This document shows positions 1-63,781 of a stretch of DNA of 64,000 nt, piece by piece; the stretch's first letter is position 1, and every line of letters starts with the position of its first letter. The translations under genes and the position numbers were made by a program. The notes beneath the pieces were generated by a model. The model had not been told where the DNA came from. It ran no database searches and was given only the letters and a program-made list of their open reading frames with translations. This DNA is from Candidatus Peregrinibacteria bacterium. Its GTDB lineage: Bacteria > Patescibacteriota > Gracilibacteria > UM-FILTER-43-11 > JACRIE01. The stretch is from NCBI GenBank assembly GCA_016220165.1, contig JACRIE010000022.1, positions 5,456 through 69,455 on the forward strand, read 5' to 3'.

Positions 1-877
1 ATCCGTTCCTATTCGCATCAAGCTCTCCTTCGACACGCGTACTGCGGATATCATAGTTCACGGCGACTATCGCGTGGAAGATGGCGAGGGGAAGCTTCTT
101 TTTAAGGCGCCAAAAGAAAGTACTGTGGAGGTAGAATTGGGTGTGGGAATCGTTAACGTCCATGGAGGTCTTATCACCAAAAGCGCAAAAATTATCCGGT
201 TTATCCCGGAGACTTCTGAAGGAATTTTTGAAATTCTTTCGTGGGAACGTCGTCCTTCCTGGAATCTGGCGCTGAATGACAATCAATTCCGGAGAATTTT
301 AGAGTTACGGTTAATCGATGATAAACCTGTTTATATCAACGAACTTCCTCTGGAAAACTATCTAAGAGGTGTCGCTGAAGTCAGCGATTCTCTTCCTTTT
401 GAAAAATTAAAAACCATCGCGGTTCTTGCGCGATCTTATGCCGAATTTTATCTCGATCCCGCTCATCGTAAATTTTTAGGCATGCCTTATGACGGCAGCG
501 ATGACCCGGATATTTTTCAAAAATATTTAGGATATGGCTATGAACAGCGTTCTAAAAATTTCACCACCGCTGTCGTCAATACCAAGAGTGAAGTCGTGAC
601 CTATAAAGGCAGTTTGATTAAAACCCCCTACTTCAACCAAAGTGACGGCCGCACGCGTTCCGCCGAAGAAGTCTGGGGATGGAAGGATACACCGTATCTA
701 AAAGCCGTGGACGACCCTTGGTGCGACGACAAAACGCTCAAAGGCCATGGCGTTGGCCTTTCCGGTTGCGGCGCGACCGAACTGGCGAAACAGGGAAAAA
801 CGTATCAGGAAATCATTAAATACTATTATACAGGCGTGGAAATAGAAAAAAATCGGCCCCCCAATCAAATTAATTAA
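1..877 (+). CDS. SpoIID/LytB-domain protein (lytic transglycosylase-like), probably 5'-truncated by the window
   Basis: Motifs INELPLENYLRGVAE, LKTIAVLARSYA, GHGVGLSGCGA and YQEIIKYYY typical of SpoIID/LytB; ORF track starts at 74. Confidence 0.85.
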   Translation, partial: SVPIRIKLSFDTRTADIIVHGDYRVEDGEGKLLFKAPKESTVEVELGVGIVNVHGGLITKSAKIIRFIPETSEGIFEILSWERRPSWNLALNDNQFRRILELRLIDDKPVYINELPLENYLRGVAEVSDSLPFEKLKTIAVLARSYAEFYLDPAHRKFLGMPYDGSDDPDIFQKYLGYGYEQRSKNFTTAVVNTKSEVVTYKGSLIKTPYFNQSDGRTRSAEEVWGWKDTPYLKAVDDPWCDDKTLKGHGVGLSGCGATELAKQGKTYQEIIKYYYTGVEIEKNRPPNQIN

Positions 878-942
878 TTAGCGATTAGTCTTTAGCCAAA
901 TTTTCTGGCTAACAGCTAACCGCTAATAGCTAACTGCTAATT
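874..942. repeat. Inverted GCTAAnn heptamer arrays filling the stop-to-start spacer
   Basis: ttagcga/ttagtct/ttagcc arm, then gctaaca gctaacc gctaata gctaact gctaatt (908-942); ATG at 944. Confidence 0.9.
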
Positions 943-943
943 A

Positions 944-1567
944 ATGATTCTCTGCATCAATACCGCTATTGCGGAACATCACGTGGCAATCGCGGCCTGC
1001 GGTCACACGGCAAGGCCGCAAAATTTTGCGGCCTTGCCCCTTCCCGCGGGCCGCGAATCCGAAACCATCCTCTCTGTCATCGCGGATCTTCTCAAAAAGG
1101 CCGGCGTTAAACCCTCAGACTTAACCGGCGTCGCCGCCATCACAGGCCCCGGAGGTTTCACGAGTCTGCGCATAGGATTGACCGTCGCGAACACATTCGC
1201 GCATGAATTCAAGATTCCGATCGTTGGCTTTCACGGCGACGAATGGTTCGCCGCGCGTACGGACGAAACCGATTTCTTATATCTGCAATCGATGAACCGG
1301 GAGGAAATTTACACAAAGGGATTTGGGAAATCTAAAAACATTGCCGGAATTCTAAAATTCCTCGATTTGCCGAAAACTCCAACACTCTTTTTAGGCAACC
1401 TCTCCGCGCTCCACAAAAACCGACTTCCCAAAAATTCCACAGAAATAAAAAAAATAAAATCCCCTGACGGCACATGGACTGCCCTCTGCCAAAATTTTCA
1501 AAAAACCAACGACCTTCTCCTTCCCTTTTACGGCAAAGAACCAACGATCACGAAAGCGAAGCGCTGA
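944..1567 (+). CDS. tsaB: tRNA threonylcarbamoyladenosine biosynthesis protein TsaB
   Basis: MILCINTA start; GPGGFTSLRIG motif. Confidence 0.9.
   Translation: MILCINTAIAEHHVAIAACGHTARPQNFAALPLPAGRESETILSVIADLLKKAGVKPSDLTGVAAITGPGGFTSLRIGLTVANTFAHEFKIPIVGFHGDEWFAARTDETDFLYLQSMNREEIYTKGFGKSKNIAGILKFLDLPKTPTLFLGNLSALHKNRLPKNSTEIKKIKSPDGTWTALCQNFQKTNDLLLPFYGKEPTITKAKR
1009..1038. repeat. Perfect 30-bp palindrome inside tsaB
   Basis: ggcaaggccgcaaaattttgcggccttgcc is self-complementary. Confidence 0.9.
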
Positions 1568-1582
1568 ACCCGAACAAAATTC

Positions 1583-2692
1583 TTATTTTGTGAGTGGTTC
1601 AGTGCTTTGAAATTCACGCCACTGTGATTCCACGGCAGTAGCCACTTTTTCTTTAAACCGCTCCACATCGAATTTAAGCGCGTGACTGCGAATGAATCGC
1701 GGGTCAAATTCGGTCTGATGAAACTCGCGAATCGCGGCCATTAAAACTCCCGGAGTTTGGCGTGGAAACACAAGACCTGTTTTGCCATCGATCATCGTGT
1801 CCTGACTGCCTCCTTCGTCATACGCGATTACCGGGCGTCCGCAGCACATCGCTTCAAGGATCGTGATACCCGCGTCTTCAAGTTGGGGAAATAAAAAGGC
1901 CGTGCAATTCGCGTACAATTCGCGAAGCGATTCGCTGTCCACATACCCCATGAGCTGGACCGTGGAGCCAGCCAGCGACTTGAGCCGGGACATGTCGGGC
2001 CCGATCCCGACGATTTTAAGAGGCAGTTTAAGCTGATTGAATGTTTCGATCAAAAGATCAAACCGCTTGTAGGGGATGAGCCGGCCTACGGCCAGAAAAT
2101 AATTATTCGCCGGCCGCGCCACAGGCTGAAAATAATCCCCGCGCACGGGTGGATAGAGCACTGTGGAATCGCGATTGTAGAACTGACGGATGCGTTTTTT
2201 GACGTGCGACGAATTGGCAATGTAGGAATCCGCGCGCTCCGCCGCGATCCGATCCCAGCGGCGGATCGATTCCATCTGGCGGCGGATGAGCGGATGAAGA
2301 ATTCGCGGGAATTGCTGCAGTCGGGTTTCCAGATCCCACGATTCCCACGCGTAGCGCATCGGTGTGTGGCAGTAACAAATGTGCAACGTGGATGGCAGCG
2401 TTATAACGCCTTTGGCCACGCTGTGACAGCTGCTGAGAACCACGTCGTATTCGTCGAGATCAAACGACTCGATGGCCATCGGCATCCAAGGCAAAAGCAA
2501 CTGATGCCGCGCAAAGGGAATTTTTTGAAGATACGACGTGCGCACGTCGGCCGTGGCCAGATCGCGCATCTTATCGCGTCTAAATAAGGTCGTATAAATC
2601 GGCGCGTCGGGATACAGCTCATGAAACGCGCTCACCACGTTTTCCGCGCCTCCATAATTCGTCAGCCAGTCTGCGACAATCGCGAGCTTCAT
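1583..2692 (-). CDS. Glycosyltransferase family 4 (GT-B)
   Basis: DWLTNYGGAE, YCHTPMRY, GRLIPYKR, EDAGITILEAM; ATG at 2692 preferred over 2707. Confidence 0.9.
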   Translation of the reverse strand: MKLAIVADWLTNYGGAENVVSAFHELYPDAPIYTTLFRRDKMRDLATADVRTSYLQKIPFARHQLLLPWMPMAIESFDLDEYDVVLSSCHSVAKGVITLPSTLHICYCHTPMRYAWESWDLETRLQQFPRILHPLIRRQMESIRRWDRIAAERADSYIANSSHVKKRIRQFYNRDSTVLYPPVRGDYFQPVARPANNYFLAVGRLIPYKRFDLLIETFNQLKLPLKIVGIGPDMSRLKSLAGSTVQLMGYVDSESLRELYANCTAFLFPQLEDAGITILEAMCCGRPVIAYDEGGSQDTMIDGKTGLVFPRQTPGVLMAAIREFHQTEFDPRFIRSHALKFDVERFKEKVATAVESQWREFQSTEPLTK

Positions 2693-2727: not shown

Positions 2728-2758
2728 ACTACAGACTACCGACTATGAACTACAGACT
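2728..2758. repeat. ACTAnnn heptamer array
   Basis: actacag actaccg actatga actacag act. Confidence 0.8.
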
Positions 2759-4622: not shown

Positions 4623-4675
4623 AAATAAGCTTTTATCTGGCTAATAACTAACCGCTAATAGCTAAAAGCTTATTT
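4623..4675. repeat. 13-bp stem hairpin containing a GCTAAnn array at a convergent junction (possible terminator)
   Basis: aaataagctttta ... taaaagcttattt; gctaata actaacc gctaata gctaaaa. Confidence 0.7.
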
Positions 4676-5989
4676 AATCGTCGTCCCGATATAAAAAAAT
4701 GGCAACATGACGGCCAGAAGCGTTGATCCGACCAGCGCCGCCACCACAAAAATCATGAGCGGCTCGATGACGGACGAAAGATTCTTGAGAGTGTAATCGA
4801 TACTCTTTTTGTAGTTCGACCGGACTTTGAGGAGCATTTTACCGATTTTGCCCGTAGTCTCGCCAATGTGCACGAGTTGCGCGACCTGGAGGGGAAAGAG
4901 GCTTTTTCGCTTGGCATCCTGTCCAGATGAGAGATCGACAAGCCCCATCATTTCGCTCATCCCCTGCCCCATCATCACGCCCTGGCGGATTTTGGAGAGC
5001 TCTTGTTCGTAGTGGAGACTGCCCATGGTTTTGGCCGTGATCTCCAGGGCGTCGGTGATCAGCACGCCGCTTTGCATGAGCATGCCAAGGTTGGCCGAAA
5101 AAATCATGATCTGTTTTTCAGTCGCGATCTTGCCAAAAATCGGCATATAGGCCGTAAAACTCTCCCACAAAAAACGCCCAAAGCGGGTAAAATGCACCAA
5201 GCTCCATAAAAAAAGAAGGATGCCGGCAACGCCCAAAAACAAAAATTTCCAGTTCATCGAAACAAATTGGCTAAGCGCGATCACCTTTTGAGTGAGAACC
5301 GGCAACGACACATTCGCGTCCTTGTACATCGATGAAATTTTGGGAATAACAAATAGCATCATGCCCGTGATGAGCGTGATACACATGACAATGAGGATGG
5401 CCGGATAAAACATCGCGCCGGTCACCTTGCGGACAAAATCCTGATGCCCTTCCATCTCTTCCGTGAGTTCGGCTAAAACGGTTTTAAGATTGCCGCTTTT
5501 TTCGCCCGCTTCCACCAGGGCCGACATCATTTCGGGAAAAAGATGAGGCAATCCGCGCATGCTTTGGGCCAGCCCCATGCCCCCGTTGATGTCGTGAATC
5601 ATCTGGGCGTAAATCTTCTTGAGAGATCCGCTCTTCGCTTGACGCTGAATAATAGTGAGCGCGGGAATGAGCGTGACGCCCGAATCGATCAGCGTCGCGA
5701 GCTGGTCGAAGAAAAAAAGCCGTTCCTTGCCCGACAGCCTCAGCATCCTGAGCGACCAGGACAGTTTATTGGTTTCCTTCTTTATCTTTTCCCTCTTCTC
5801 AATCTTTACGGCTTCTTTCGGTTGCACTAGGACCCTCGAAGGGGCTCCTTCGAGACCGCTATTCGGCCCGCCATCTGGCTTGCTATCCGTAATCATCTTC
5901 TTCCTGGAAAAAATCCGCTCAAAAAACAGCTCCAGCTCAAACCCGAGCGCAATCCATCCATCCCGAATTTTGTGCGCTAGGAAGCTCAT
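4670..5989 (-). CDS. pilC: Type II secretion/type IV pilus platform protein (PilC/GspF)
   Basis: QLATLIDSGV, AGEKSGNL, AMFYP, IGETTG, IEPLMI motifs. Confidence 0.9.
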   Translation of the reverse strand: MSFLAHKIRDGWIALGFELELFFERIFSRKKMITDSKPDGGPNSGLEGAPSRVLVQPKEAVKIEKREKIKKETNKLSWSLRMLRLSGKERLFFFDQLATLIDSGVTLIPALTIIQRQAKSGSLKKIYAQMIHDINGGMGLAQSMRGLPHLFPEMMSALVEAGEKSGNLKTVLAELTEEMEGHQDFVRKVTGAMFYPAILIVMCITLITGMMLFVIPKISSMYKDANVSLPVLTQKVIALSQFVSMNWKFLFLGVAGILLFLWSLVHFTRFGRFLWESFTAYMPIFGKIATEKQIMIFSANLGMLMQSGVLITDALEITAKTMGSLHYEQELSKIRQGVMMGQGMSEMMGLVDLSSGQDAKRKSLFPLQVAQLVHIGETTGKIGKMLLKVRSNYKKSIDYTLKNLSSVIEPLMIFVVAALVGSTLLAVMLPFFYIGTTIK

Positions 5990-6017
5990 TCAAAATTAAA
6001 AATTAAAAAATTCAAAA

Positions 6018-6386
6018 TTATTTTTTATGAGAAGAAATTGAAAAAATACCAAATTTTGCAAGTTGCCTGGAAATATTTAAACTATCAGATTTTAGTTCAT
6101 TAAATTGCTCTTCCTCCAAATAACGGTTATCGAAAGCAATATAAAAAACAGCGCGACATTCTCCGGCAGAAGCCTTCGCCTGATTAATGAATCGAGCAAA
6201 ATCTATATTGGATGCACGTTCAAAACCCTCAGAAATATTCAAAAGTATTGATACGGCGGCTCGACGTAGCTGATCCCTCAAACCAAAATCACGCCCAAAC
6301 TGTTTCTCGGTAATTTTGTAAATTCTAGAAACAAAACGTCTCACTTCCTGCCACAATGGTATATCTCCAAAAGTTTGGTATTTCGT
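6018..6386 (-). CDS. Four-helix-bundle protein (TIGR02436 / 23S rRNA IVS protein / Avd-like); start codon uncertain
   Basis: LRDQLRRAAVSILLNISEGFER...AKASAGECR; frame extends upstream of TTG 6356 as (ACG)KYQTFGDIPLWQ with no ATG. Confidence 0.85.
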   Translation of the reverse strand, partial: TKYQTFGDIPLWQEVRRFVSRIYKITEKQFGRDFGLRDQLRRAAVSILLNISEGFERASNIDFARFINQAKASAGECRAVFYIAFDNRYLEEEQFNELKSDSLNISRQLAKFGIFSISSHKK

Positions 6387-6415
6387 ATTAATTTTGAATT
6401 AAATAGTATCTTAAT

Positions 6416-6444
6416 ATTATATCAAAATACGCCAAGAAAAACAA
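6416..6444 (-). promoter_or_regulatory. Putative sigma70 promoter inside the cassette
   Basis: Minus strand TTGTTT-17bp-TATAAT with TG extended -10. Confidence 0.55.
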
Positions 6445-6495
6445 GGGGTTTTGGCTTAACTACATTATTAAGCAACACACTTAATTTTGAATTTT

Positions 6496-7200
6496 CTAAT
6501 TTTTAATTTTGAATGAAAAGGACGATCCGAACACCTTTTTCAGAACGCTGAGCAGATCCATTGGGATCGGCGCCTCAATCGTGATAAGCTGTTTGAGGAA
6601 AGGGTGCATGAAACGGATCCGTTTCGCGTGCAAAAAAAGTCGGCCAAGCCGCAGAACAATGCGAAATTTACGATTAAACGCGAAATCCCCGTATTCGGCG
6701 TCCATGATGACGGGGCAGCCGATCCGCGAAAAGTGCTCGCGAATCTGATGGCGACGCCCTGTTTCGATTACGGCCTCAACCAAGGCGCAGGAAGCGCCGA
6801 AAATACGCATAGTTTTTAAAATACTAAAATGAGTTTTAGCCTCAACAGACACGTCCGCCGTACGGGCTTTGAGTGGGATTTGAACAGAATCCCCGCGCGG
6901 GACTCCCTTTAGAAAAGTGAGATAACTTTTTTCAGTTTCCGAATGCTGGAAAATGGCTTCCAAAGGAGTCCGGTCGCGCTCAAATTTTCCAAAAAGCAAT
7001 ACGCCAGATGTCTCCTTGTCTAACCGATGCAGCAAATAGGGTTTAAACCCTTTGCCTTCATACCGGCGCTGAACTTTGCCAAGAACCGACGCATTCAAAG
7101 ACGTCTGCGGATTGGGTACGGAAACCACGCGCGGCGGCTTCTGGATCGCGATCAAATAATCATCCTCATAAAGAGTGGGGATGAGATCTTTTTTAGGCAT
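6496..7200 (-). CDS. RluA-family pseudouridine synthase
   Basis: HRLDKETSG, TGRRHQIR and LFLHA motifs. Confidence 0.92.
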   Translation of the reverse strand: MPKKDLIPTLYEDDYLIAIQKPPRVVSVPNPQTSLNASVLGKVQRRYEGKGFKPYLLHRLDKETSGVLLFGKFERDRTPLEAIFQHSETEKSYLTFLKGVPRGDSVQIPLKARTADVSVEAKTHFSILKTMRIFGASCALVEAVIETGRRHQIREHFSRIGCPVIMDAEYGDFAFNRKFRIVLRLGRLFLHAKRIRFMHPFLKQLITIEAPIPMDLLSVLKKVFGSSFSFKIKN

Positions 7201-13344: not shown

Positions 13345-13366
13345 TCCTCTTGTCAGGTGTCAGATG

Positions 13367-15079
13367 TTATCTTTGCACCACGGTAATCTCTTTTGGATCC
13401 GATTGAATCGCGTTTTTGTTGCGGTCACGGATACCCTTCATTGAAATCCTATATTGCTCTAAGGGTTGGCTTGTGATACCGGAAAGGCTAAGACGCGTGA
13501 CTGCCTGATCCGTTGAAACGCTTTCGATTTTTACCGTGTCTGTCGTGGGACTGATCGCGTTTATGTCCTGGATCGTGTAATTCGCGGGATTATTCACGCT
13601 CACGTCATCCATCGGTTCGCTCCATAAAAGACTAATCTGACTCAGGGTGTCGAACTTTTGTTCCAGAACGTAAGGAGGGGTAGTATCCGGCTGAACATGT
13701 AGCGTCAGATCGGTATCGCCCAGCAAAGAACCGCGCCAAAAAGCTTTGTCCTCGCGCGCGTCGAAGATATCGCTCTCCAGCATCGAGTCGCGGGGGCCCG
13801 TGATAGCCACGAGATAATTCGTGCGATCCGCGGATTGTTTGGTCAGACGCAATCGATAATCGCTGCCTGAAAAAAGATTCCTCGGCAGCGTGTAATCATA
13901 CGTCCACTCCGCGCTGGGTTTTTCATCCGTGAGTTGCACAACCGTGCCGATCATTTGAAATTGAGAAGTGAGTTCAATTTTGCTTCCATCCGGCATATAA
14001 GAAATCGTGTATCCAACCGGTAAAATCACGCGCAAATAGCCGCGGTAAGGATCACTGTAACTGTTGAGCTTTCCCGGAAAATTGAGTTCCACTTTCAAGT
14101 GCGCGGTCGGAACGGGCGTGCTGAGATCAACATAATATTCCGCGTTTTTAAGTAAATAACGATCCGCTTTTTTGCTACCAAGATTCGCGAGATTGAGTCC
14201 CAAAAAATCGCTTCCCATACTCTGAAGGCGCGATTCCGTAATCGCGCCGGGATACGTCAGCGCGTTCCCCCATCCGCGCGCGATAACCTTCGCTTCCAAC
14301 GCGGGCTTTTTGAACCAAAAATAAAGATCTTTTTGGTCTATGGCGCTGGATAAAACATTGCGAGTGCGAAAAGGACTCCAAAACATTTTAGAAGTCAGGC
14401 TTTGAGCGAGTTCTTTTAAAACATCCTTTCGACTCGCGAGCGCGGCAAGGTTGTGGCGATCGACATTCCCGACCTGAAATTCAAGAAAAGAAAACAGGTT
14501 CTTTGAATCAACGGATTGATTTTTAATCGACACCGAGCCCAATTCTTTAAGTAAGTCTTCAATCACCTTGAAATTCATCACGACGACGCCATCAATGTCG
14601 CTCGAAGGGAATTTCTTTTGATAAAAATCAACAATCGTTTTCGCCGCGTCAGGAAAATTGGGATCCCAATTCGCGTCGCGAAAAGTATATCCCTGATACC
14701 ATTCGTTTTTTAGAAGTTCCTCTTGGGGATAGGGCGGTGTGACGTAAGAAGACGTGTCCACTTCATAGGAATTATGGAACGAAAACGACGTAGGAATCCC
14801 AAAAAGCAGATTCAGATTCGCGTACGCAGTCACAAATCCGCCTCCGGGTCGCAGTTCGTCATTATTCTGGAACACAATAAGATATTCTTTGTAGCCGAAC
14901 GCTGAATCCCAAAAATGATTAACAAAAAAACGAAACCGCTCTAAAAAAACATAAAACCCAAGCAATAAAAAAACGAGAACGCTTCCTAAAATTATTAAAA
15001 AAGGCCAACGCCGGGAAGGGGGTCTTGGTATGAGGAGCGACCGTCTTGTAGCGGCAAATTTTTCCAATGAATATTTCAA
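13367..15079 (-). CDS. DUF4012-like membrane-anchored protein with C-terminal Ig-like domain
   Basis: N-terminal TM; YLIVFQNNDELRPGGGF and RDANWDPNFP motifs; DTTPP...WSEPMD Ig-like tail. Confidence 0.7.
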   Translation of the reverse strand: MKYSLEKFAATRRSLLIPRPPSRRWPFLIILGSVLVFLLLGFYVFLERFRFFVNHFWDSAFGYKEYLIVFQNNDELRPGGGFVTAYANLNLLFGIPTSFSFHNSYEVDTSSYVTPPYPQEELLKNEWYQGYTFRDANWDPNFPDAAKTIVDFYQKKFPSSDIDGVVVMNFKVIEDLLKELGSVSIKNQSVDSKNLFSFLEFQVGNVDRHNLAALASRKDVLKELAQSLTSKMFWSPFRTRNVLSSAIDQKDLYFWFKKPALEAKVIARGWGNALTYPGAITESRLQSMGSDFLGLNLANLGSKKADRYLLKNAEYYVDLSTPVPTAHLKVELNFPGKLNSYSDPYRGYLRVILPVGYTISYMPDGSKIELTSQFQMIGTVVQLTDEKPSAEWTYDYTLPRNLFSGSDYRLRLTKQSADRTNYLVAITGPRDSMLESDIFDAREDKAFWRGSLLGDTDLTLHVQPDTTPPYVLEQKFDTLSQISLLWSEPMDDVSVNNPANYTIQDINAISPTTDTVKIESVSTDQAVTRLSLSGITSQPLEQYRISMKGIRDRNKNAIQSDPKEITVVQR

Positions 15080-17828: not shown

Positions 17829-20681
17829 ATGTTCAAAAAAACCTTTGTCGTTCTCGACATCGAAACCACCGGCCTCTATCCGGAAAGCGACGACATCATC
17901 GAGGTGGCGTGTATTCGCTATGAGCAGGGAAAGGAAGTCAGCCGTTTCGATTCGCTAATCAAAATCGACAAAGAAATCCCGCCGATTGTCTCTCTCATCA
18001 CAACGATTCAAAACACAGATTTAGTAGACGCGCCCTTGTGGGAAACCGTAAAACTTGAAGTTCAAAAAATCGTACGGGGCGCGCACATCATCGGCCACAA
18101 CATCAATTTTGACGTGGGATTTTTGAAAAAAAAGGGCATCGATTTTGAATCCAGCGTTCTTTTGGACACGGTGCCGTTGGCCCAAATCGCCTTCCCGACC
18201 GCGGTCAGTCACAGTTTAGAGTCTTTGACGGACGAACTCGATATAAAGCACACGGCCAAGCACCGCGCCATGAGCGATACCGAAGCCACGCTCGACCTGT
18301 TTAAAAAAATCTGGAAAAAAATCGACGGTCTTCCGAAGCCGATCATCGATGAAATCAAAGACTGCGTCCGCCGAAGCGAGTGGGGCATGGCAATATTTTT
18401 CGACGAAATCCGCGGGAAAGCGCGGGCGACGTCCGACAAATGTAGCTACAAGGCATGCCTTGTAGCTACCGGAACGTCGGCGCCGCCCCGCGGATTATCC
18501 GTGGCCGAAGTTTTCAACGAAAACGGTTTCCTCTCGCAGGCATGGGACCATTACGAATCGCGGCCTCAGCAAAAACAAATGGCTACAGCGGTCGCGCACG
18601 CCTTCGAACACGAATATCATTTGATTTGCGAAGCGCCCACGGGCGTTGGAAAATCGCTCGCCTATTTAGTGCCGGCCGCTGAAATCGCGCTAAACAAAAA
18701 ACAGCGCGTCGTGATCGCGACCCACACCATTACGCTCCAGCATCAACTCTTTGAGAAGGATCTTCATCATCTGCACCAGATCTATCAACAATCAGCCCCC
18801 ATCACTTCTTGCCCCCCTGAGCCTGCCCTGAGCAGGGTCGAAGGGAAGGGGGGTTTGGGTGGTTTGTCTCCCCTCAACGTCGCAGTGCTCAAGGGGCGCG
18901 GCAACTATTTATGCCTTCAGCGCCTGCGCGAATTCAAAAAAAGGTCTCGTTTCAGTCCGTCCGAGATCACGTTGCTCATCAAAATTCTCGCGTGGCCGTG
19001 GATGAATCTAGGAGGCGATTTGGCGGATATGACCCTCACGCGCGAGGAGCGCATTGTGTGGGATTTTGAACTGTCCGCGGCCAGCAAAGCCATTCATGGC
19101 GGCAAGTGCTGCAAAAATCCGGACTGTTATTTTCAGCAGGCGCTCAAAGCGACGCAGGACGCGCCCATCGTCATTGTAAATCACGCGCTCTTAATGGCGG
19201 ATCTCGTTATGGGCGGAGGACTACTTCCCGAATACAAGTACCTCATCATCGACGAAGCGCACCATTTTGAAGAAGTGGCAACGAAGAGCTACGGAAGAAC
19301 CGTGACTCAGGAAAACCTGACCATTCCGGAAAAATCGATCGTGGCGCATTTGGGACAACTAAAAAGGAATTACTCGGAAACGCTTTTCGGGCAACAATCC
19401 TGTTTTCAGGAAATCGAACCATTGCTCTCCGGGGCAAATGATCTTTTGCAAAAAACAGACAATATCTTTAGCTTAATTTCACTCTTCGTCAACACGCATG
19501 TAATGCCGTCGAAGTATCAGGAAAGCCTTTTGATTGATCGCGCGATCATGACGAGCGGAGAGTGGCTGAATCTCGGAGATTCCGTTCAAAAACTGATTGA
19601 AGCCACTCAGGAGTGGATCCGAAAAATCGAATATTTTTCCGACAAGCTGGCAGGCGCCGCGTCTAAAGATTTTCCGGAATGCGATGAATTCAGCGAAGAA
19701 CTGAATCAGGAAATCGCCATTCTTAAAGAACAATTGGCGCAACTGCATCCGTTCTTTTTGCCAGTGGAAACGCCGCGCGATATTCGCTTTTTTTCGTGTA
19801 ACGACAGCGGCGCCGTCGTTCTCACATCGCTACCGATACTCGTGGGAGAAAATCTTAAAAAGGACCTCTACGCTTCCAAAAAATCGATCCTTCTGACATC
19901 CGCTACTCTTAGTACTCCTTTATTCGCCGATGACGCTCCTGATGTCGCTCAAAAACCGTTCGACTATCTTCGTAAAATGCTAAGTTTAGATGAACACTTC
20001 GAAGAACTGATTCTCGACTCGCCCTTCGACTACGAAAAACAGGCGCTCATGATTCTTCCAACGGATTTACCCGACGTGCGGAGTCAAGACAGTCTCGCGC
20101 CCGTGGCCGAACTCATAAAACAGGTGGCCGAAGCGACACAGGGACGTATGTTGGGACTTTTCACGTCTTATCGCACGATTGAAAATCTTTATCTCAATCT
20201 CGTGATTCCGCTCCAAAAAAAAGGAATCAGTGTCCTTGCGCAACGCTTTAGCGGAGGCCGTAATAAAATTCTGCGCGCGTTTCTGAATAATCCGGAACAT
20301 TCCATTCTTCTCGGCACCAGCAGTTTCTGGGAAGGCATCGACATCCCCGGTGACGACCTCAGTTGCGTCATGATCCATAAACTCCCGTTCGATATTCCGA
20401 GCGACCCGCTGCATAAAACGCGAAGCCAATGGTTCTCCAATGGTTTTTATCAATACACCATGCCGCGCGCGATTCTGCGCTTTAAGCAAGGTTTCGGCCG
20501 TCTCATCCGCTCCAAAAAAGACGTGGGCATCATGATCATGCTGGACAGCGCGCTCACCAAAAAAGATTACGGGCAATTCTTCCTCAAAAGTTTGCCAAAC
20601 GTGCCCGTGGAAAAAATAAAATGCGCCGAAATCCCCGCGTTGATCAAGGAGTGGCTGAAATTACAAAGAAGTGACGAGTGA
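17829..20681 (+). CDS. dinG: DnaQ-type exonuclease / DinG helicase fusion
   Basis: DIETTG, HNINFD, HRAMSD; APTGVGKS, DEAH, SATL, FWEGID, QGFGRLIR. Confidence 0.93.
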   Translation: MFKKTFVVLDIETTGLYPESDDIIEVACIRYEQGKEVSRFDSLIKIDKEIPPIVSLITTIQNTDLVDAPLWETVKLEVQKIVRGAHIIGHNINFDVGFLKKKGIDFESSVLLDTVPLAQIAFPTAVSHSLESLTDELDIKHTAKHRAMSDTEATLDLFKKIWKKIDGLPKPIIDEIKDCVRRSEWGMAIFFDEIRGKARATSDKCSYKACLVATGTSAPPRGLSVAEVFNENGFLSQAWDHYESRPQQKQMATAVAHAFEHEYHLICEAPTGVGKSLAYLVPAAEIALNKKQRVVIATHTITLQHQLFEKDLHHLHQIYQQSAPITSCPPEPALSRVEGKGGLGGLSPLNVAVLKGRGNYLCLQRLREFKKRSRFSPSEITLLIKILAWPWMNLGGDLADMTLTREERIVWDFELSAASKAIHGGKCCKNPDCYFQQALKATQDAPIVIVNHALLMADLVMGGGLLPEYKYLIIDEAHHFEEVATKSYGRTVTQENLTIPEKSIVAHLGQLKRNYSETLFGQQSCFQEIEPLLSGANDLLQKTDNIFSLISLFVNTHVMPSKYQESLLIDRAIMTSGEWLNLGDSVQKLIEATQEWIRKIEYFSDKLAGAASKDFPECDEFSEELNQEIAILKEQLAQLHPFFLPVETPRDIRFFSCNDSGAVVLTSLPILVGENLKKDLYASKKSILLTSATLSTPLFADDAPDVAQKPFDYLRKMLSLDEHFEELILDSPFDYEKQALMILPTDLPDVRSQDSLAPVAELIKQVAEATQGRMLGLFTSYRTIENLYLNLVIPLQKKGISVLAQRFSGGRNKILRAFLNNPEHSILLGTSSFWEGIDIPGDDLSCVMIHKLPFDIPSDPLHKTRSQWFSNGFYQYTMPRAILRFKQGFGRLIRSKKDVGIMIMLDSALTKKDYGQFFLKSLPNVPVEKIKCAEIPALIKEWLKLQRSDE
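18442..18469. repeat. Perfect 28-bp GTAG...CTAC palindrome inside dinG
   Basis: gtagctacaaggcatgccttgtagctac is self-complementary. Confidence 0.9.
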
Positions 20682-23850: not shown

Positions 23851-23928
23851 CGCGACGATCGACAATTGACCTTTGACTTTTGACTTTGAATTTAGGTCAA
23901 ACGTCAAATGTCAGGTGTCAAATGTTAA
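23847..23928. repeat. Inverted TGAC/GTCA heptamer arrays (atpB-atpE spacer)
   Basis: gacaatt gaccttt gactttt gactttg ... gtcaaac gtcaaat gtcaggt gtcaaat. Confidence 0.85.
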
Positions 23929-27856: not shown

Positions 27857-29310
<1,454 letters not shown>

Positions 29311-44620: not shown

Positions 44621-45063
44621 TTTTCAATTAATATGATCCGCTTCACGTCCACCGAATGCGGACCCGTATTGTCCGTCCATTCCACGCGCGACGTAACTTT
44701 ATAAGCACTCGTTAAACCGGTCCCGTCAGCGAGAATTAATCGTCTGAAAACACCTCCGATTAAAGGTTCTTGAGTATCTGCAAGGTTATAAGGCGCACTG
44801 GAAAGGTATTTCGTGCAAGGTGAATGGGCGCAAACAGGCTGAATAGCCGCGTATCCAAGCCCTTCCGCGATCTCAATACCCTGATTCGCCCAGAAATAAG
44901 CGTCCGACTCTTTTTCCGTCGTATTCGACAGCATCAGATTGCTCGTTTGGAGCTTTATGACGCCAAAAACAATGAGTGCCAAAAAAACCATGGCGAACAT
45001 GAGCTCGATGAGGCTGAAACCTTCTAGTGACAGGAGACGAGTGACGAGAAGTGAACGTTTCAT
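44617..45063 (-). CDS. PilV-like minor pilin
   Basis: G|FSLIELMFAMV; ATG 45063 preferred over 45114. Confidence 0.75.
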   Translation of the reverse strand: MKRSLLVTRLLSLEGFSLIELMFAMVFLALIVFGVIKLQTSNLMLSNTTEKESDAYFWANQGIEIAEGLGYAAIQPVCAHSPCTKYLSSAPYNLADTQEPLIGGVFRRLILADGTGLTSAYKVTSRVEWTDNTGPHSVDVKRIILIEN

Positions 45064-45128
45064 TTTTATTTTATATTCAGCCGCTATTATATCTCGTTCC
45101 TCGTCACTAGTCATTTGTCACTAAAACA

Positions 45129-45157: not shown

Positions 45158-45175
45158 ATTTAGATTCTTAAAAAA

Positions 45176-45253
45176 CACATGACAACTAACAACTGACACC
45201 TGACGTTGAAATGCATTTTATGGTCAATTGTCAGATGTCATATGTCAGATGTA
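45176..45253. repeat. Inverted TGACA/TGTCA heptamer arrays in the pilB 5' leader (empty version)
   Basis: tgacaac taacaac tgacacc tgac ... gtcaatt gtcagat gtcatat gtcagat gt; ATG at 45258. Confidence 0.88.
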
Positions 45254-45257
45254 AATT

Positions 45258-46497: not shown

Positions 46498-46980
46498 ACA
46501 TTTGACAACTGACATTTGACAATTGACCGAATAACCGATGAAAAAATTTCGCTTCAGAGAATTTCAGGTCTATAGAGATTCAAGAAAATTTAGTAGTAAA
46601 AATTTAAAATCTTTAACAAGGATTAAATTTCCTAAGGAGGAACAATTCTGCCTCACTTCACAGCTCTGGAGAGCTTTGGATTCAATAATATTAAATATCG
46701 CAGAAGGTTCCGATCGAGGTACGGACAAAGATTTCGCGCATTTTTTAAATACTTCACACACTTCTCTTAATGAAGTTGTCGCGTGTCTGGATGTCGCCTT
46801 AGATAGCAAATATCTTACAGAAAAAGAACATGATGAATGTCTTAAGGAATCAGAATTATTAGGAAATCAATTAACAGCATTCCGAAAAAGACTTCTGGAT
46901 AATCCAACCAAATAGGAACTATGCCAAAAGTTAAAAGCCAGATATCAACGGTCAATTGTCAAATGTCAAAAGTCAAATGT
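46498..46980. mobile_element. Second four-helix-bundle cassette bounded by 32-bp inverted TGACA arms
   Basis: 46498-46529 versus 46949-46980: 29/32 complementary; mobility is inferred only. Confidence 0.6.
46538..46915 (+). CDS. Four-helix-bundle protein (TIGR02436 / IVS protein / Avd-like)
   Basis: FREFQVY...FPKEEQFCLTSQLWRALDSIILNIAEG...SLNEV. Confidence 0.92.
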   Translation: MKKFRFREFQVYRDSRKFSSKNLKSLTRIKFPKEEQFCLTSQLWRALDSIILNIAEGSDRGTDKDFAHFLNTSHTSLNEVVACLDVALDSKYLTEKEHDECLKESELLGNQLTAFRKRLLDNPTK

Positions 46981-47607
46981 GCGAACGGTTTTTCGCTCGT
47001 TGAACTCCTGATCGCCGTCGCCATCATCGCGATCATCAGCGTGGGATCTATGGCGAGTTTTAGCTTGGTCGGAGACATCGTTCGCGTAAAACAGGGCGCG
47101 GGACTCATCCAGGACATCATTCATCAAATGGATGGACAAGCGCTTCGTGGCGAGTATCAAAAAATGACAGTTCATTTTTTAACGAATTATTTAGTAATTG
47201 AGTATGAGCCAAAAGGCCTGGAATCCAATCTCTTAAAATGGGATTCAAATAACATCACGGCAACTCAAGGCGGGAATCTTTATAAATCGGATAGCGCTGG
47301 AAGACAGATTAGTATTAATGTGGTGCCTGCGGGATCGGTTCAAAACCTCGATACAAATTTTCGAAATGCGAAAGAAGATGGTTGGCAATTTCAACTCAAA
47401 AATGGCAATCAATTTTCTGAAATCATTGCTCTGCGCCATTTCAACGTAAACCGCGACAGTCAGCAGACAAACCTACTGAGTCTCGATCCAAATACGGTCA
47501 TTTTAACTGTGGAGGCGCCTTATGCAAAACATAGCGTCTCCGGCGGAAACACCCTGAAAATGCATGACGCCAAAGCAAACAAAGAAGAAACCATTGAAAT
47601 AAAATAA
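46963..47607 (+). CDS. Prepilin-type protein
   Basis: MSKVKCANG|FSLVELLIAV; alternative in-frame ATG at 46921. Confidence 0.8.
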   Translation: MSKVKCANGFSLVELLIAVAIIAIISVGSMASFSLVGDIVRVKQGAGLIQDIIHQMDGQALRGEYQKMTVHFLTNYLVIEYEPKGLESNLLKWDSNNITATQGGNLYKSDSAGRQISINVVPAGSVQNLDTNFRNAKEDGWQFQLKNGNQFSEIIALRHFNVNRDSQQTNLLSLDPNTVILTVEAPYAKHSVSGGNTLKMHDAKANKEETIEIK

Positions 47608-48113: not shown

Positions 48114-49855
48114 AACGAACCGTTATTAAAGTCGCAGGCGAAAGCGGTATGGGTCTCCTCAGTGTGGGGAATATCGTCTCGAAAGCCCTCAAGGGAATGG
48201 GGTTCTATGTCGTATCCGACCGCGAATACCCTTCGCTCATCAAAGGCGGCCACTCCAATCTTCAAATCGACTTCAGCGCCGAACCGCTCCACTCGCTGAG
48301 CAAATCGGTTGATTTCGTGATCGCCTTGGATCGGCCGGGATTAGTGGAATACATGAATATCGTGAAACCCGGCGGCGTATTGATCCACGGATTCGAGCGT
48401 CATCAGAGCATCCCAAATCTGGAAACGCGGGCCAAAGAGCGCGGCATTCACATGATCTACCTTCCAGCGCGCACGCTCGCCTACTCGCTCGGCGGCACGG
48501 AATTGATGGCGAACATGGTTCTTTTAGGACTTTTGTGGCGCCTCTTGGGATTCGATCTAAAACCATTAGAAACAGGGATTGAAAAACAGTTCGCGAATAA
48601 GCCGAAATTGCTCACAATCGATCTTCAATGCGTCCGCGTCGGATTTTCCGCCCAAGAAGGGAACGGGGGTTTTGTAGGGGCGTGCCATGGCGCGCCCACC
48701 CAAACCCCCGACACCATCCTCGTCAACGGCAACCAGGCGATCACGCTCGGCGCGATCCAGGCGGGCGTGCGCGCGTACTACGCCTATCCCATGAGCCCCG
48801 CGAGCTCGATCCTGACATACATGGCCGAATACGCGCGTGAAACAGGCCTGCTCGTGAAACAGGCCGAAGATGAGATCACAGCGGCGCAAATGGCCGTGGG
48901 ATCGATGTTCATGGGCACGCGGGCCCTCGTCGCCACCTCCGGTGGCGGCTACGATTTGATGACGGAAACCGTATCGCTCGCGGGCATGATCGAGACGCCG
49001 CTCGTGATCGTCATTGCCCAGCGGCCGGGGCCTGCTACCGGGCTTCCCACATGGAGCGCGCAAGCCGATCTGAATCTGGCCATCCATTCCGGCCATGGCG
49101 AATTCGCGCGCGTGGTCATCGGCGTCAGCGATCCCGCGTCGTGCTACGAATTGATCCAGCACGCCATGAATTATGCGGATGAATTCCAGACGGCCGTGAT
49201 CGTACTCACGGAAAAAACCATCTGCGAAATGCAGACGACCGTGCCGCCGTTTGAAGAAGGAAAAATTCCAATTAAGCGCGGTTTATTGGTAACAGACCCG
49301 AAAGAGCTCGAAACTCTCAAAGCTTCAGACCGTTTTAAAATCACGGAAAACGGGCTATCGAAACGATGGATTCCGGGAAGTGGCAAAACTTGGTTCTATG
49401 GCAACGGCGACGAGCACAAAGAAGACGGCGTGCTCACGGAAGAGGGCGCCGAAGTGAGCGCCATGATCGCGAAACGCATGAAAAAAATGGAGACGATCGA
49501 AAAAGCGCTCCCTGAACCAACAATCCACGGAGTTAAAAAGGGCGCCGCCATTTCATTTGTCGGCTGGGGTAGTAGCAAAAACGCCGTGCTCGACGCAATT
49601 CAAAACTGCAAAGAAAAAGGAATAACCGTAAATTATCTCCATTTCGATTACCTTTGGCCGTTCAAAACAGCCACGCTCACGCAGTTCTTCAGAGACAACC
49701 AAAACGTCCACCTGATCGAAGGAAACTATCAGGGCCAACTCGGCAACTTGATTGAAGCCTTACCCAATCTACGCTTCAAAGGCCGCCTTCTCCAATGGAA
49801 CGGCCGCCCGTTTTGTATGGAAGACGTCACCGATTACATATCTCGTCACTCGTAA
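48110..49855 (+). CDS. korA: 2-oxoacid:ferredoxin oxidoreductase alpha subunit
   Basis: GESGMG, IKGGHS, YPMSP, QAEDE, TSGGG, QRPGPATG. Confidence 0.9.
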   Translation: MKRTVIKVAGESGMGLLSVGNIVSKALKGMGFYVVSDREYPSLIKGGHSNLQIDFSAEPLHSLSKSVDFVIALDRPGLVEYMNIVKPGGVLIHGFERHQSIPNLETRAKERGIHMIYLPARTLAYSLGGTELMANMVLLGLLWRLLGFDLKPLETGIEKQFANKPKLLTIDLQCVRVGFSAQEGNGGFVGACHGAPTQTPDTILVNGNQAITLGAIQAGVRAYYAYPMSPASSILTYMAEYARETGLLVKQAEDEITAAQMAVGSMFMGTRALVATSGGGYDLMTETVSLAGMIETPLVIVIAQRPGPATGLPTWSAQADLNLAIHSGHGEFARVVIGVSDPASCYELIQHAMNYADEFQTAVIVLTEKTICEMQTTVPPFEEGKIPIKRGLLVTDPKELETLKASDRFKITENGLSKRWIPGSGKTWFYGNGDEHKEDGVLTEEGAEVSAMIAKRMKKMETIEKALPEPTIHGVKKGAAISFVGWGSSKNAVLDAIQNCKEKGITVNYLHFDYLWPFKTATLTQFFRDNQNVHLIEGNYQGQLGNLIEALPNLRFKGRLLQWNGRPFCMEDVTDYISRHS

Positions 49856-49865
49856 CTCGTCACTC

Positions 49866-50783
49866 ATGTCCTGTCCCAACAATCAATCATCGTACCTTCG
49901 CGAACTCGCGGCCAAAAAAAAGGACTTCATGGCCTATGAATCCACGGAAGTCATGACGTGGTGCAGCGGCTGTGGCGACTACGGAATCCAAAAAGCATTG
50001 GAGCGCGCGCTCGTGCTCGAAGGAATCAAACCGCATGAAACGCTCCTCTGTTTCGACATCGGTTGCAACGGCAACGGCGCCGACAAAATCAACGGTTACA
50101 CGCTTCACGGCCTCCACGGCCGCGTGGTGAGCGTCGCGGCCGGCGCGTGCCTTGCCAACCCGAAAATAAAAGTCATCGCCGAAGGCGGCGACGGCGGCAC
50201 GTTTAGCGAAGGCATCAACCATCTCGTCCACTCTGTTCGCAGCAACTATCCCATGGTTTTCATCCTGCACAACAACGAGAATTACGGCCTCACCATTGGC
50301 CAAGCATCCGCTCTGACGCGCAAAGGGCAGGCCATGAACGGCACGCCTGATGGAGTGGTACTGCAACCCATGAACACCTGCCAATTTGTGTTAGGACTGA
50401 ACCCGACCTTCGTGGCGCGAGGATTCAGTAGCGACGTAAAACACATGACCGAAATCATTCGCGCGGGTCTGCGTCACAAAGGGTTCGCTTTCATCGAAAT
50501 CATGCAGTTGTGTCCCACATTTAATAAAGTCACGTCCGCAAAGTGGTTTTGGGATCGCGTGCGCTATACAGACCAACAAAAAAATTACGACCCGACCAAT
50601 CTCAAAAGGGCCCGTGAAGCGTCTGAAGATCTTGAAAAAGAGATCATGCTCGGCGTCTTGTATCAGGACAAATCGCGACCGAGCTTCCCTGAGCTCTTTG
50701 AGTCCCGAAAAGGCATTACGACCTCTTTGTCCGAAGAAGTTAGGCCTTATTCCATAAAAGAATTAATTAAAAACTTAAAATAA
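49866..50783 (+). CDS. korB: 2-oxoacid:ferredoxin oxidoreductase beta subunit
   Basis: WCSGCG, IGC, LHGR, GGDG, NNENYGLT; ATG 49866 ends a CTCGTCA array. Confidence 0.9.
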   Translation: MSCPNNQSSYLRELAAKKKDFMAYESTEVMTWCSGCGDYGIQKALERALVLEGIKPHETLLCFDIGCNGNGADKINGYTLHGLHGRVVSVAAGACLANPKIKVIAEGGDGGTFSEGINHLVHSVRSNYPMVFILHNNENYGLTIGQASALTRKGQAMNGTPDGVVLQPMNTCQFVLGLNPTFVARGFSSDVKHMTEIIRAGLRHKGFAFIEIMQLCPTFNKVTSAKWFWDRVRYTDQQKNYDPTNLKRAREASEDLEKEIMLGVLYQDKSRPSFPELFESRKGITTSLSEEVRPYSIKELIKNLK

Positions 50784-60574: not shown

Positions 60575-60649
60575 AATAGTCAGATGTTAAATTTCAAGTT
60601 ACAAGTCCCAAAGGGATCACTTAGTGATTACGAGTTACGCATTTAAATT

Positions 60650-61456: not shown

Positions 61457-61557
61457 AAGATTTCAAAGTTCAGGATTCGTAAATATAAATAAAATTTTTT
61501 GACAATTAGCTTTTTGGAATTCTGATCAATTGTCAGATGTCAGTTCTCAGGTGTTCT

Positions 61558-62547: not shown

Positions 62548-62577
62548 GGAATGAAAATTAAAAAATAAAGGAGGGAA

Positions 62578-63183
62578 TTAACGAGAGTAAAACTCAACAA
62601 TCAATTTGCTGTCCACGCTCTTTTCCAATTCATCTGCCTGAGGAATATCAGTAATTTCGATCATCAAATTCTTAAGATCGACCTTCATCCATTTTGGAGA
62701 ATAGTCTTTCAATTTTTCAAATCCCTGATAAAGCGGGGAAGTCTTTAGTTTTGGACGAACCTGGATCTTATCACCCGCCTGAACTTGGATAGAGGGAATA
62801 TCGACGCGACGGCCATTGAGCAAAAAATGTCCATGCCCTACTTGTTGTCTGGCTTGCAAACGAGTGACGGCAAATTGAGAAACATACATCACGTTATCCA
62901 AACGCAGTTCCAAAAGACGCAAAAGATTTTCACCGCTCTGGCCGGGTTGTCGAACGGCCTTTTTGTAATAATTATGAAATTGTTTTTCGGAAATGCCGAA
63001 AATACTGCGCGCCTTTTGTTTCTCGCGAAGTTGGCGGCCATATTCACTCAATTTAGCATAGCGTTCACCGTGCATGCCGGGGCGGGAACCGGAATTACGC
63101 ATAATTTTGGTATACTTCTCGTTTCCAAAAAGATTGACTCCTTCTCGACGGCATAAACGTGCTTTTGGACCTGTATAACGCAT
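62578..63183 (-). CDS. rpsD: 30S ribosomal protein S4
   Basis: RYTGP...LREKQK, LELRLDN, IVEFYSR. Confidence 0.97.
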   Translation of the reverse strand: MRYTGPKARLCRREGVNLFGNEKYTKIMRNSGSRPGMHGERYAKLSEYGRQLREKQKARSIFGISEKQFHNYYKKAVRQPGQSGENLLRLLELRLDNVMYVSQFAVTRLQARQQVGHGHFLLNGRRVDIPSIQVQAGDKIQVRPKLKTSPLYQGFEKLKDYSPKWMKVDLKNLMIEITDIPQADELEKSVDSKLIVEFYSR

Positions 63184-63241
63184 AGTAAATTGAAGATGAT
63201 AAATTAATTTTTAATTTTCAATCTTTAATTTTCAATTAAAG

Positions 63242-63751
63242 TTAAACTCGACGGGCTTTCTTGCGACGGCATCCATTATGAGGCATCGCTGTAATATCAA
63301 AAATCGCATCCAGATCAAGCCCCGCGGCTTGGAGACCCCGAACCGCTTGTTCGCGTCCGGTTCCAACGCCTTTAATGAAAACTTTGAGGCTTTTTACGCC
63401 ATAAGGAGCTAATTTTTCAACCACTTTTTCCGCTGTCACCTGGGCGGCGTAAGGAGTAGCTTTCCGGCTTCCCTTAAAACCAACCGATCCTGAACTGGCC
63501 GCGGCAATCAGCTCGCCATTAGGTTCTGTAATGGAAATAATCGTATTATTATAAGAAGCCATAATATAGGCATGCGCCTGAGAAACTACTTTGCGAACCC
63601 GCTTCTTGGCAACCTTTTTACCGGCAGGAACAGCTGCGGCTGGTGTGGCGGCAATAGGCTTGTCCGCCGATCTGTCCGCCGTAGCGGGAGCGGAGGAGGA
63701 AGCTCCAGCGGAGGCGGAAGCGTCCTTAGGCTTGGGTTTGATTTCAGTCAT
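63242..63751 (-). CDS. rpsK: 30S ribosomal protein S11 with Ala/Ser-rich N-terminal extension
   Basis: SYNNTI, GFKGSRKATPYAA, PHNGCR. Confidence 0.96.
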   Translation of the reverse strand: MTEIKPKPKDASASAGASSSAPATADRSADKPIAATPAAAVPAGKKVAKKRVRKVVSQAHAYIMASYNNTIISITEPNGELIAAASSGSVGFKGSRKATPYAAQVTAEKVVEKLAPYGVKSLKVFIKGVGTGREQAVRGLQAAGLDLDAIFDITAMPHNGCRRKKARRV

Positions 63752-63781
63752 ATCCAATTACAAGTTACAAATTTCGAATTT

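Follow-up and report, generated by a model that had tools for sequence, protein, structure and literature searches.

Heptamer arrays between genes of a Candidatus Peregrinibacteria genome are probably arms and gene-less copies of cassettes carrying four-helix-bundle genes

We analysed a window of 64,000 nucleotides from the genome of an ultrasmall groundwater bacterium, a member of Candidatus Peregrinibacteria. The window corresponds to C3:5456-69455 in an assembly of 1.217 Mb (73 contigs, 48% G+C, 98% complete). Many of its gene junctions contain arrays of seven-base units. Our analysis suggests that these arrays are probably the arms, and gene-less copies, of cassettes resembling intervening sequences (IVSs) of 23S rRNA, which lie on operon transcripts and are probably cut by RNase III. 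The gene carried belongs to TIGR02436, the 'four helix bundle protein' family (hereafter 4HB), also called S23p or '23S rRNA intervening-sequence protein'. The window has two such genes, at 6018-6356 (minus strand) and 46538-46915 (plus strand). Gene content is otherwise ordinary and includes an atp operon, ribosomal proteins, type IV pilus genes, dinG and lexA. The closest relatives of one 4HB protein are found in Peribacteria/Peregrinibacteria metagenome-assembled genomes (MAGs), a lineage of the candidate phyla radiation (CPR). What we observe directly is the anatomy of the hairpins, the inheritance of arms together with the gene, the co-orientation of genes with operons, the co-occurrence of arrays and genes across genomes, and the intactness of the genes.

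A preliminary description of the window, made from its sequence, listed heptamer arrays at 26 intervals. The periodicity is real: in 24 of these, the best 21-nt stretch was at least 0.67 identical at lag 7. The other two intervals, 24190-24225 (0.43) and 27857-27917 (0.57), are weakly periodic; they are hairpins of the same families nonetheless. Tandem Repeats Finder (TRF) reported 27 period-7 rows in the window. Across the genome, 429 of 1166 rows had period 7 and 106 had period 14. Splitting a lag-7 scan by DNA type, a check proposed with the original list, gave an identity of 0.3105 in non-coding DNA, compared with ~0.278 at neighbouring lags, and echoes at lags 14 and 21. Coding DNA had no lag-7 peak (0.247). 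Our array detector found 265 period-7 arrays genome-wide, amounting to 10.5 kb, or ~8% of non-coding DNA. For periods 8, 9, 10, 11 and 12, the same detector found 17, 4, 0, 1 and 2 arrays. Each of ten Markov shuffles of the non-coding DNA produced 0-1 period-7 arrays. Only 44 of the 265 are inside crude open reading frames (ORFs), while coding DNA makes up 90% of the genome. The description of units as a fixed core plus variable bases also held, with pairing of 97.7% in core columns and 62.8% in variable columns. Rfam had no match in the window at gathering score.

The arrays are mostly arms of inverted pairs, a feature absent from the preliminary description. An inverted partner was present within 700 nt for 122 of the 265 arrays, against 6 in a reverse-sequence control; 20 had direct partners. 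Similarly, an ungapped inverted-repeat finder returned 205 strong inverted repeats in the genome and 3 in a shuffle. Eighty of the 205 have period-7 arms of ~17-35 nt, with loops mostly of 5-100 nt. By arm family, there are 23 TTAGC/GCTAA hairpins, 16 AATTTCT/TTAGAAA and 14 GTGACGAG/CTCGTCAC, followed by GTAAC (6), AAAATT (4), TGACA (2) and AAATCAC (1). Near-identical arms were found repeatedly on different contigs. Six of eight window spacers fold to long stems (-24 to -38 kcal/mol, z -3.5 to -5.3), with a predicted mismatch at about every seventh base. Gene-less hairpins of the heptamer families (~70) occupy about a tenth of gene junctions.

Some loops are themselves structured. Many in the TTAGC/GCTAA family contain a GC-rich mini-hairpin, CCCGCC..GGCGGG, bracketed by CAGA..TCTG (for example at C15:23266-23362, C67:15398-15505 and C32:1864-1959). 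Hence, these elements are nested palindromes with a conserved inner module. In the GTAAC family, a loop module of ~24 nt, forming a small hairpin, is common to window positions 27857-27917 and 60579-60640, and to C26:62417-62534. Its orientation to transcription is the same in the atp and ribosomal-protein operons and opposite at the C26 locus. A GTGACGAG-type hairpin (C43:14373-14430) directly adjoins the gene for RNase III.

Could such arrays be neutral, microsatellite-like products of slippage, or the hairpins intrinsic transcription terminators? We consider this very improbable. Heptamer copy number does differ between Coxiella strains (PMC4990558), and a T-rich tail follows 15 of 53 hairpins located in co-directional junctions. 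However, the imperfect units have fixed cores, arrays form inverted pairs, the same arms occur at distant loci and, as described below, arrays follow 4HB genes across genomes. With regard to terminators, the arms are AT-rich (GC 0.33), 38 of the 53 hairpins have no T tail, and hairpins occur inside the atp and ribosomal-protein operons as well as in divergent junctions. On the grounds of arm composition, scarce T-rich tails and sites within operons, intrinsic terminators were rejected.

We found seven 4HB matches over the cut-off in the genome, with E values from 1.6e-38 to 3.8e-9 and a mutual identity of 20-37%. Four of the genes are each enclosed by the two arms of a single heptamer hairpin, split around the gene, with arm scores of 31-65. 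The four hairpins represent four families: AAAATT (window 5986-6514), TGACA (window 46498-46984), GTGACGAG (C50:15482-15972) and AATTTCT (C26:36622-37097). A fifth gene, C50:22620-22985, has short GCTAA-type arms of ~13 nt. The copy on C24 is not enclosed; a complete TTAAG-type hairpin is just upstream. Finally, one ORF (C8:32723-33148) is inside the 23S rRNA gene, sense to the rRNA, with a 27-nt non-periodic inverted repeat around it. This copy is a classic ORF-bearing 23S IVS. The rRNA gene concerned (C8:29592-34022, minus strand) spans 4431 nt against a 2925-position model. Hence, it carries ~1.5 kb of insertions, of which the 4HB ORF is one. The six copies outside rRNA are between protein-coding genes and all are co-oriented with both neighbours. 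Stops interrupt only two of the 150 4HB matches that were listed for this genome and related ones, so the genes are kept intact. Note that other apparent gene-sized loops, around genes for S18, S4 and a 132-aa membrane protein, were set aside: each gene is flanked by two separate complete hairpins.

The number of arrays follows the number of 4HB genes. We counted 0-16 4HB hits in each of 30 genomes from the same order, and sampled 93-200 kb from each of twelve. Four genomes with no hit (G007, G009, G013 and G006) had 0.0, 0.5, 0.0 and 2.1 arrays per 100 kb, and a lag-7 excess of -0.011 to -0.002. Where there was a single hit (G003 and G014), we found 0.7 and 1.0 arrays per 100 kb, with non-coding lag-7 excesses of -0.009 and -0.002. 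With 7-16 hits (G005, G012, G001, G024, G029 and G010), density was 7.8-20.1 arrays per 100 kb and the excess was +0.011 to +0.039. The genome studied here, with seven hits, has 21.8 arrays per 100 kb and a non-coding excess of +0.032. This correlation was a check suggested in the preliminary description; Spearman's coefficient is 0.80 over 13 genomes, in a test that overstates the association since the genomes are related. The same description held that equally common arrays in genomes lacking 4HB genes would argue against any link. We found the opposite, as six genomes with none or one are nearly array-free.

The link to 4HB genes, first put forward for this window, is reinforced by other phyla. 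Searching a species-genome collection with one 4HB protein found 336 relatives, of which the best 80 loci were analysed; this sample covers relatives of one paralog only. Fifty-five loci are from Peribacteria-type MAGs. The other 25 are from Bacteroidota, Chloroflexi, Pirellulales, Terriglobus, proteobacterial MAGs and one archaeal MAG contig. We defined a gene as enclosed if an inverted repeat scoring at least 28 was present within 220 nt on each side. By this measure, 32 of 75 testable 4HB genes are enclosed, 24 with period-7 arms, compared with 4 of 113 neighbouring control genes. Outside the CPR alone, the figures are 13 of 23 and 1 of 30. In these cross-phylum loci, some arms have periods of 8-12, and the right arm usually overlaps the 4HB stop codon. 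Orientation could be scored at 74 loci: the 4HB gene is co-oriented with both neighbours at 49, opposite to both at 3 and mixed at 22. Arms scoring at least 27 are present at 32 of the 38 4HB loci of five Peribacteria genomes.

Arms become more alike as the proteins do. The fraction of shared 6-mers is 0.02 for proteins below 40% identity, 0.056 at 50-60%, 0.16 at 60-70% and 0.48 above 70% (3 pairs). None of 500 permutations reached the observed correlation. We conclude that arms travel with the gene, and are not host hairpins that the gene entered by chance. This argues against an earlier suggestion that the arrays are targets of a 4HB system. Furthermore, when 12-base words were taken from the 4HB arms of each genome, four of five matrix columns showed enrichment of these words elsewhere in the same genome.

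The junction downstream of pilB was compared in 20 relatives. In four, a 4HB gene follows pilB, with heptamer arrays in front, and is of a paralog type unlike that in the window. Hence, lineages differ in which of two paralog types has occupied this junction. Several other relatives have gene-less arrays or hairpins here. At least four (G007, G022, G028 and G013) have a compact, array-free junction. Within one genus, the junction is filled in G010 and not in G001 or G002, which indicates fast turnover.

A separate feature of this junction is that, in several relatives, the 4HB frame continues without a stop through the right-arm array and into the pilin. Such frames are at L088 1673-2731 (G010), L094 1649-2686 (G012) and L096 1679-2713 (G014). 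Further open frames, of 412 and 360 aa, are at G019:C69:4147-4467 and G029:C44:3879-4193. The array is translated as a Pro/Asn/Ser/Lys-rich linker and is followed by the prepilin motif G|F(T/S)L(V/I)EL. Judging from these frames, the 4HB domain would be an oversized prepilin leader, which prepilin peptidase would free, provided that no internal start codon is used.

We also considered whether the hairpins could be the host's own RNA elements, acting in mRNA processing, stability or translation, with 4HB genes being selfish and settling in safe loops. The location of the hairpins is in keeping with this. As stated in the preliminary description, junctions are filled from stop to start: with gene starts called crudely, hairpins begin a median of 5 nt past the stop codon and end a median of 12 nt before the next start. 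In addition, Shine-Dalgarno motifs are rare throughout the genome. That starts at arrays lack such motifs, as had been claimed, is correct (0 of 112 array genes); that this is peculiar to arrays is not, with only 80 of 1041 other genes having one. Overall, Shine-Dalgarno-like 4-mers precede only 8% of crude gene starts, which is below the 13% rate in random 19-mers. Hence, this Peribacteria genome seems to be without Shine-Dalgarno-led initiation. The start-proximal heptamer repeats of Shine-Dalgarno-poor Beggiatoaceae have been proposed to act in translation (PMC4679880). The presence of two paralog types at the same pilB-pilin junction, in different genera, is as expected for a favoured site, and the empty hairpins have no gene remnants. 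Nevertheless, we regard host elements as a rather unlikely explanation. The tracking of 4HB protein relatedness by arm sequence across genomes is unexpected for pre-existing hairpins. Similarly, the six relatives with 0-1 4HB genes, being nearly array-free with compact junctions, indicate that the host has no need of arrays. Nor do the hairpins show a sense-strand G:U bias, a strand bias or a preference for a junction type. Their sites are co-directional (49), convergent (7), divergent (7), inside ORFs (4) or at contig edges (4). Rather than preferring highly expressed operons, as had been claimed, arrays are in all junction types, roughly as background. A strand bias relative to transcription, for which a test had been proposed, was not seen for unpaired arrays, where numbers are small.

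Alternatively, REP- or MITE-like hairpins (repetitive extragenic palindromes and miniature inverted-repeat transposable elements, respectively) might be spread by a Y1 transposase, of the IS200/IS605 or RAYT type, acting on single-stranded DNA hairpins. The 4HB genes would then be passengers. There are 6 Y1_Tnp matches in the genome, near-identical arms are present at many loci, and an absence of RNA-strand bias fits a DNA-level process. Moreover, the array-poor genomes G006, G007, G009, G013, G014 and G017 also have no Y1 hits. We still judge this route improbable. None of the six Y1 loci has a heptamer array or hairpin within 1.2 kb. Two genomes without a Y1 hit, G005 (7 4HB genes) and G029 (12), have 7.8 and 20.1 arrays per 100 kb. 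The RAYT-like gene on C64 has a different, GC-rich palindrome at its flanks. With Y1 loci apart from arrays, and arrays dense in G005 and G029, the RAYT reading was rejected. As an aside, the C64 frame (934-1736) encodes 221 aa, and several of the ~21-nt palindromes, of a non-heptamer family, flank it.

How might a 4HB cassette work? A full element would consist of the 4HB gene, oriented like the host operon and placed between two arrays, the one on the right inversely complementary to the one on the left. Most copies, represented by the ~70 hairpins, would be gene-less. By analogy with 23S IVSs, elements would be transcribed within host operons. The arms are predicted to fold into interrupted stems of 23-35 bp, with a mismatch at about every seventh base. 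RNase III, encoded here by rnc (C43:14437-15099), would cut these stems, as it does for ORF-bearing IVSs in 23S rRNA. Cutting would free the 4HB message and separate the flanking cistrons; we propose that, because of this, insertion between essential genes is tolerated. More tentatively, a pentameric 4HB protein may recognise its own heptamer arrays and help gene-less copies to persist or spread. Relatives in the PDB, 2gsc and 2rld, have five chains each. A bolder proposal, which we consider doubtful, is that every 4HB paralog is a sequence-specific, ring-shaped nucleic-acid binder of its own array. Protein and array would jointly be a transposase-free selfish or regulatory element, which promotes array copying or retention, or acts in trans on the messages of ~10% of genes where Shine-Dalgarno sites are lacking. 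If true, such binding would account at once for the heptamer repeats found in cyanobacteria, Bacteroidota, Beggiatoaceae and CPR, and would be the first function for the S23p/IVS protein family.

Several observations weigh against the idea that arrays are arms and gene-less copies of 4HB cassettes. At a score of 28, 143 of the 265 arrays have no inverted partner, and two direct-only arrays in the window do not fold. The AAATCAC and GTAAC families have no resident 4HB gene in an assembly that is 98% complete. That each resident paralog has its own heptamer family is suggestive only: five cassettes would fall into five different families with a chance probability of 0.066. The fifth matrix column was not specific, as G001 arm words are as common in G024 as in G001. 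Across the order, 4HB-less genomes come from only two genera and, hence, the contrast in array density rests on few independent events. The origin of empty hairpins is a further difficulty. Among 6468 intergenic peptides there were no decayed 4HB genes (best E 0.68). Within families, similarity between the inner flanks of cassettes and the loops of gene-less hairpins was not significant (p 0.11-0.36). A 10-nt stretch seemingly common to flank and loop in one family did not hold up either. Empty hairpins are therefore not supported as descendants of filled ones, and the suggestion that arrays are remnants of a 4HB system finds neither a coding remnant in intergenic DNA nor flank/loop homology. 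Next, arm mismatches are G:U-compatible 23 times in the sense strand and 23 times in the antisense strand, leaving no RNA-strand signature. These equal counts give no support for selection of a sense-strand RNA fold; symmetry that arose at the level of DNA fits equally well, and the symmetry of arms may also be kept there. Lastly, transcription through the hairpins and cutting by RNase III are argued by analogy, and the sequencing runs containing the window sequence are DNA contigs of one groundwater study, with no RNA run listed.

The nearest known system is the ORF-bearing 23S IVS. In Coxiella burnetii, the IVS stem is 28 bp long, encloses an S23p ORF and includes two or three tandem heptamers (PMC4990558). 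Heptamer number varies with strain and RNase III cuts at the first repeat; the same source cites ORF-bearing IVSs in Leptospira and others. The protein family is the same as here, and the ORF lies in the loop of a stem formed by terminal inverted repeats, sense to the host transcript. The Coxiella heptamers have a TGACA-like core, resembling one of our families. Furthermore, one copy here sits in a 23S rRNA gene. Judged by the IVS stem, four of our seven copies have clear split arms, one has ~13-nt arms, the rRNA copy has its 27-nt repeat and the C24 copy is unenclosed. Unlike 23S IVSs, six of the seven copies are between protein-coding genes of operons; we thus call them IVS-like cassettes and not IVSs. 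In addition, the arms here are multi-unit heptamer arrays, of at least six families, accompanied by ~70 gene-less hairpins. Excision by RNase III has been shown for rRNA IVSs and is presumed for the cassettes.

Short tandemly repeated repetitive (STRR) heptamer repeats occur in heterocystous cyanobacteria. Intergenic TAACTGA heptamer repeats are described from Beggiatoaceae, Cyanobacteria and Bacteroidetes (PMC4679880). These repeats resemble ours in being tandem, intergenic 7-nt units, numbering hundreds per genome, that often end a few bases before a start codon in hosts with few Shine-Dalgarno sites. Unlike our arrays, the TAACTGA repeats are a single unit, with 169 direct sets and one inverted, are predicted to be unfolded, and have no reported link to a gene (PMC4679880). 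Here, there are several unit families, mostly in inverted pairs, tied to 4HB genes in a CPR Peribacteria host. The families seen here exclude TAACTGA.

Like REP/REPIN-RAYT systems and MITEs, the elements are short intergenic palindromes in many near-identical copies, existing in gene-bearing and gene-less forms with the same ends. Indeed, arm sequences are common to both forms. They differ in that the carried gene is 4HB, which has no known transposase chemistry, and in that arms are tandem arrays, not unique sequence. Unlike in REP/RAYT systems, the Y1 transposases neither adjoin nor track the arrays. A functional analogy is provided by early mRNAs of phage T7, which have RNase III processing hairpins between cistrons. 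These too are imperfect, mismatch-bearing hairpins in polycistronic spacers, separating cistrons and leaving protective stems. They have no sequence relation to the elements here and contain neither tandem repeats nor a gene; in the present case, cutting is presumptive.

Avd accessory proteins of diversity-generating retroelements, which act with nucleic acid, are likewise small, basic and pentameric four-helix bundles. A family relation to 4HB is mentioned in PMC10053308. An Avd identity was rejected for the genes here: this 98%-complete genome has no reverse transcriptase (no RVT_1 match) and no template/variable repeat pair. PMC3936711 reports 4HB genes inside cas operons as possibly CRISPR-associated. 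Cassettes that lie at operon junctions explain such placement more simply. Our literature search, with subscription journals mostly outside its reach, found no paper that draws a general link between 4HB/S23p genes and inverted heptamer arrays.

The cassette joins, in one element type, three unexplained and separately described things: intergenic heptamer repeats, S23p proteins and stray copies of their genes in operons. Within one bacterial order, the repeats are common only where 4HB genes are numerous, and so long-unexplained repeats gain a testable origin. For annotation, ~8% of the non-coding DNA of a streamlined CPR genome is made up of arrays. These may enter reading frames; pilin leaders and 4HB-pilin fusions are examples.

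Individual window features are as follows. Before tsaB (944-1567), a TTAGC/GCTAA-type hairpin fills the spacer at 874..942 (TRF; fold -24.5 kcal/mol, z -5.3). The divergent junction at 2728..2758 has a direct ACTAnnn array (TRF period 7, 4.4 copies; lag-7 identity 0.71), and a GCTAA array lies at 4640..4670 (TRF, lag-7) between ORF 2835-4616 and pilC (4670-5989, minus strand). Next is the minus-strand filled cassette at 5986..6514 (C3:11441-11971), with 35-nt AAAATT-type arms (5986-6021 and 6481-6514) around the 4HB gene 6018-6356. It matches TIGR02436 with E 3.2e-29, and has an inverted repeat score of 65 and a loop of 461 nt. Between acs and the next gene, there is a short TGTCA array of less than 3 units at 13350..13369, with 0.77 identity at lag 7 over 20 nt, which is below the TRF size range. 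The convergent dinG/rarA junction (20671..20777) contains a GTGACGAG/CTCGTCAC hairpin in which a second hairpin is nested (fold -38 kcal/mol, z -3.6).

A TTGAC/GTCAA hairpin separates atpB from the next atp gene (23853..23927; TRF; fold -26.8 kcal/mol, z -3.7), and a TGACA/TGTCA hairpin is between atpA and atpG (26833..26912; TRF; best 21-nt stretch 0.71). The atpG-atpD junction (27857..27917) has GTAAC-type arms around the conserved loop module and, with a best 21-nt stretch of 0.57, is only weakly periodic. From atpC to trxB, there is a TTAGC/GCTAA hairpin with 30-nt arms (29845..29914, or C3:35300-35365; TRF; inverted repeat), in which 1-nt mismatches occur every 7 nt (fold -33.7 kcal/mol, z -4.0). 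Further along, GTTAC/ACGAG-type arrays are at 31490..31573 (lag-7), and a GTCAGnn array fills the pgeF-nnrD spacer at 33101..33156 (TRF 33103-33148, period 7, 6.3 copies).

At the 5' end of a pilin ORF, the direct TTCGTAA array 42059..42098 (5.3 copies; TRF) has no inverted partner and does not fold (z +0.6). It is followed by an AAAATT-type array at 42774..42803 (TRF, lag-7), an AATTTTC array at 44592..44635 (TRF; 4.6 copies, 96% matches), a GTGACGAG/CTCGTCAC hairpin at 45026..45122 (fold -33.3 kcal/mol, z -5.2) and a TGACA/TGTCA hairpin at 45175..45257, which runs up to the start of pilB (fold -24.8 kcal/mol, z -3.5). The plus-strand filled cassette, 46498..46984, has TGACA-type arms (46498-46527 and 46943-46984) around the 4HB gene 46538-46915, a TIGR02436 E value of 1.4e-25 and an inverted repeat score of 40-49. 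Its right arm is inside the leader-coding start (window 46921-46990) of the pilin ORF 46921-47607; an ATG within a heptamer unit there could be the real pilin start.

The remaining arrays are a CTCGTCA array where the alpha and beta genes of 2-oxoacid oxidoreductase meet (49837..49870; TRF) and those among ribosomal-protein genes. The latter comprise a GTTAC-type hairpin between rpsI and rplM (60579..60640; lag-7), TGTCA-type arrays between rplQ and rpoA (61499..61556; lag-7), a direct TTAATTT array between rpsD and rpsK (63202..63238; TRF; weak fold, z -1.1) and a GTTAC-type array after rpsK (63754..63781; lag-7).

Other features of the window are of different kinds. An IS4-family transposase fragment at 9979-10698 encodes 239 aa against a 332-position model. 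An A-rich, low-complexity repeat at 11293-11368, with periods of 10-24 and not of the heptamer type, lies upstream of the gene for acetyl-CoA synthetase. Finally, two adjacent genes at 36801-40126 (minus strand), adjoined by lexA, have sub-threshold matches to MAD5, a specificity subunit, and MAD2, a methyltransferase, both proteins of a methylation-associated defence system.

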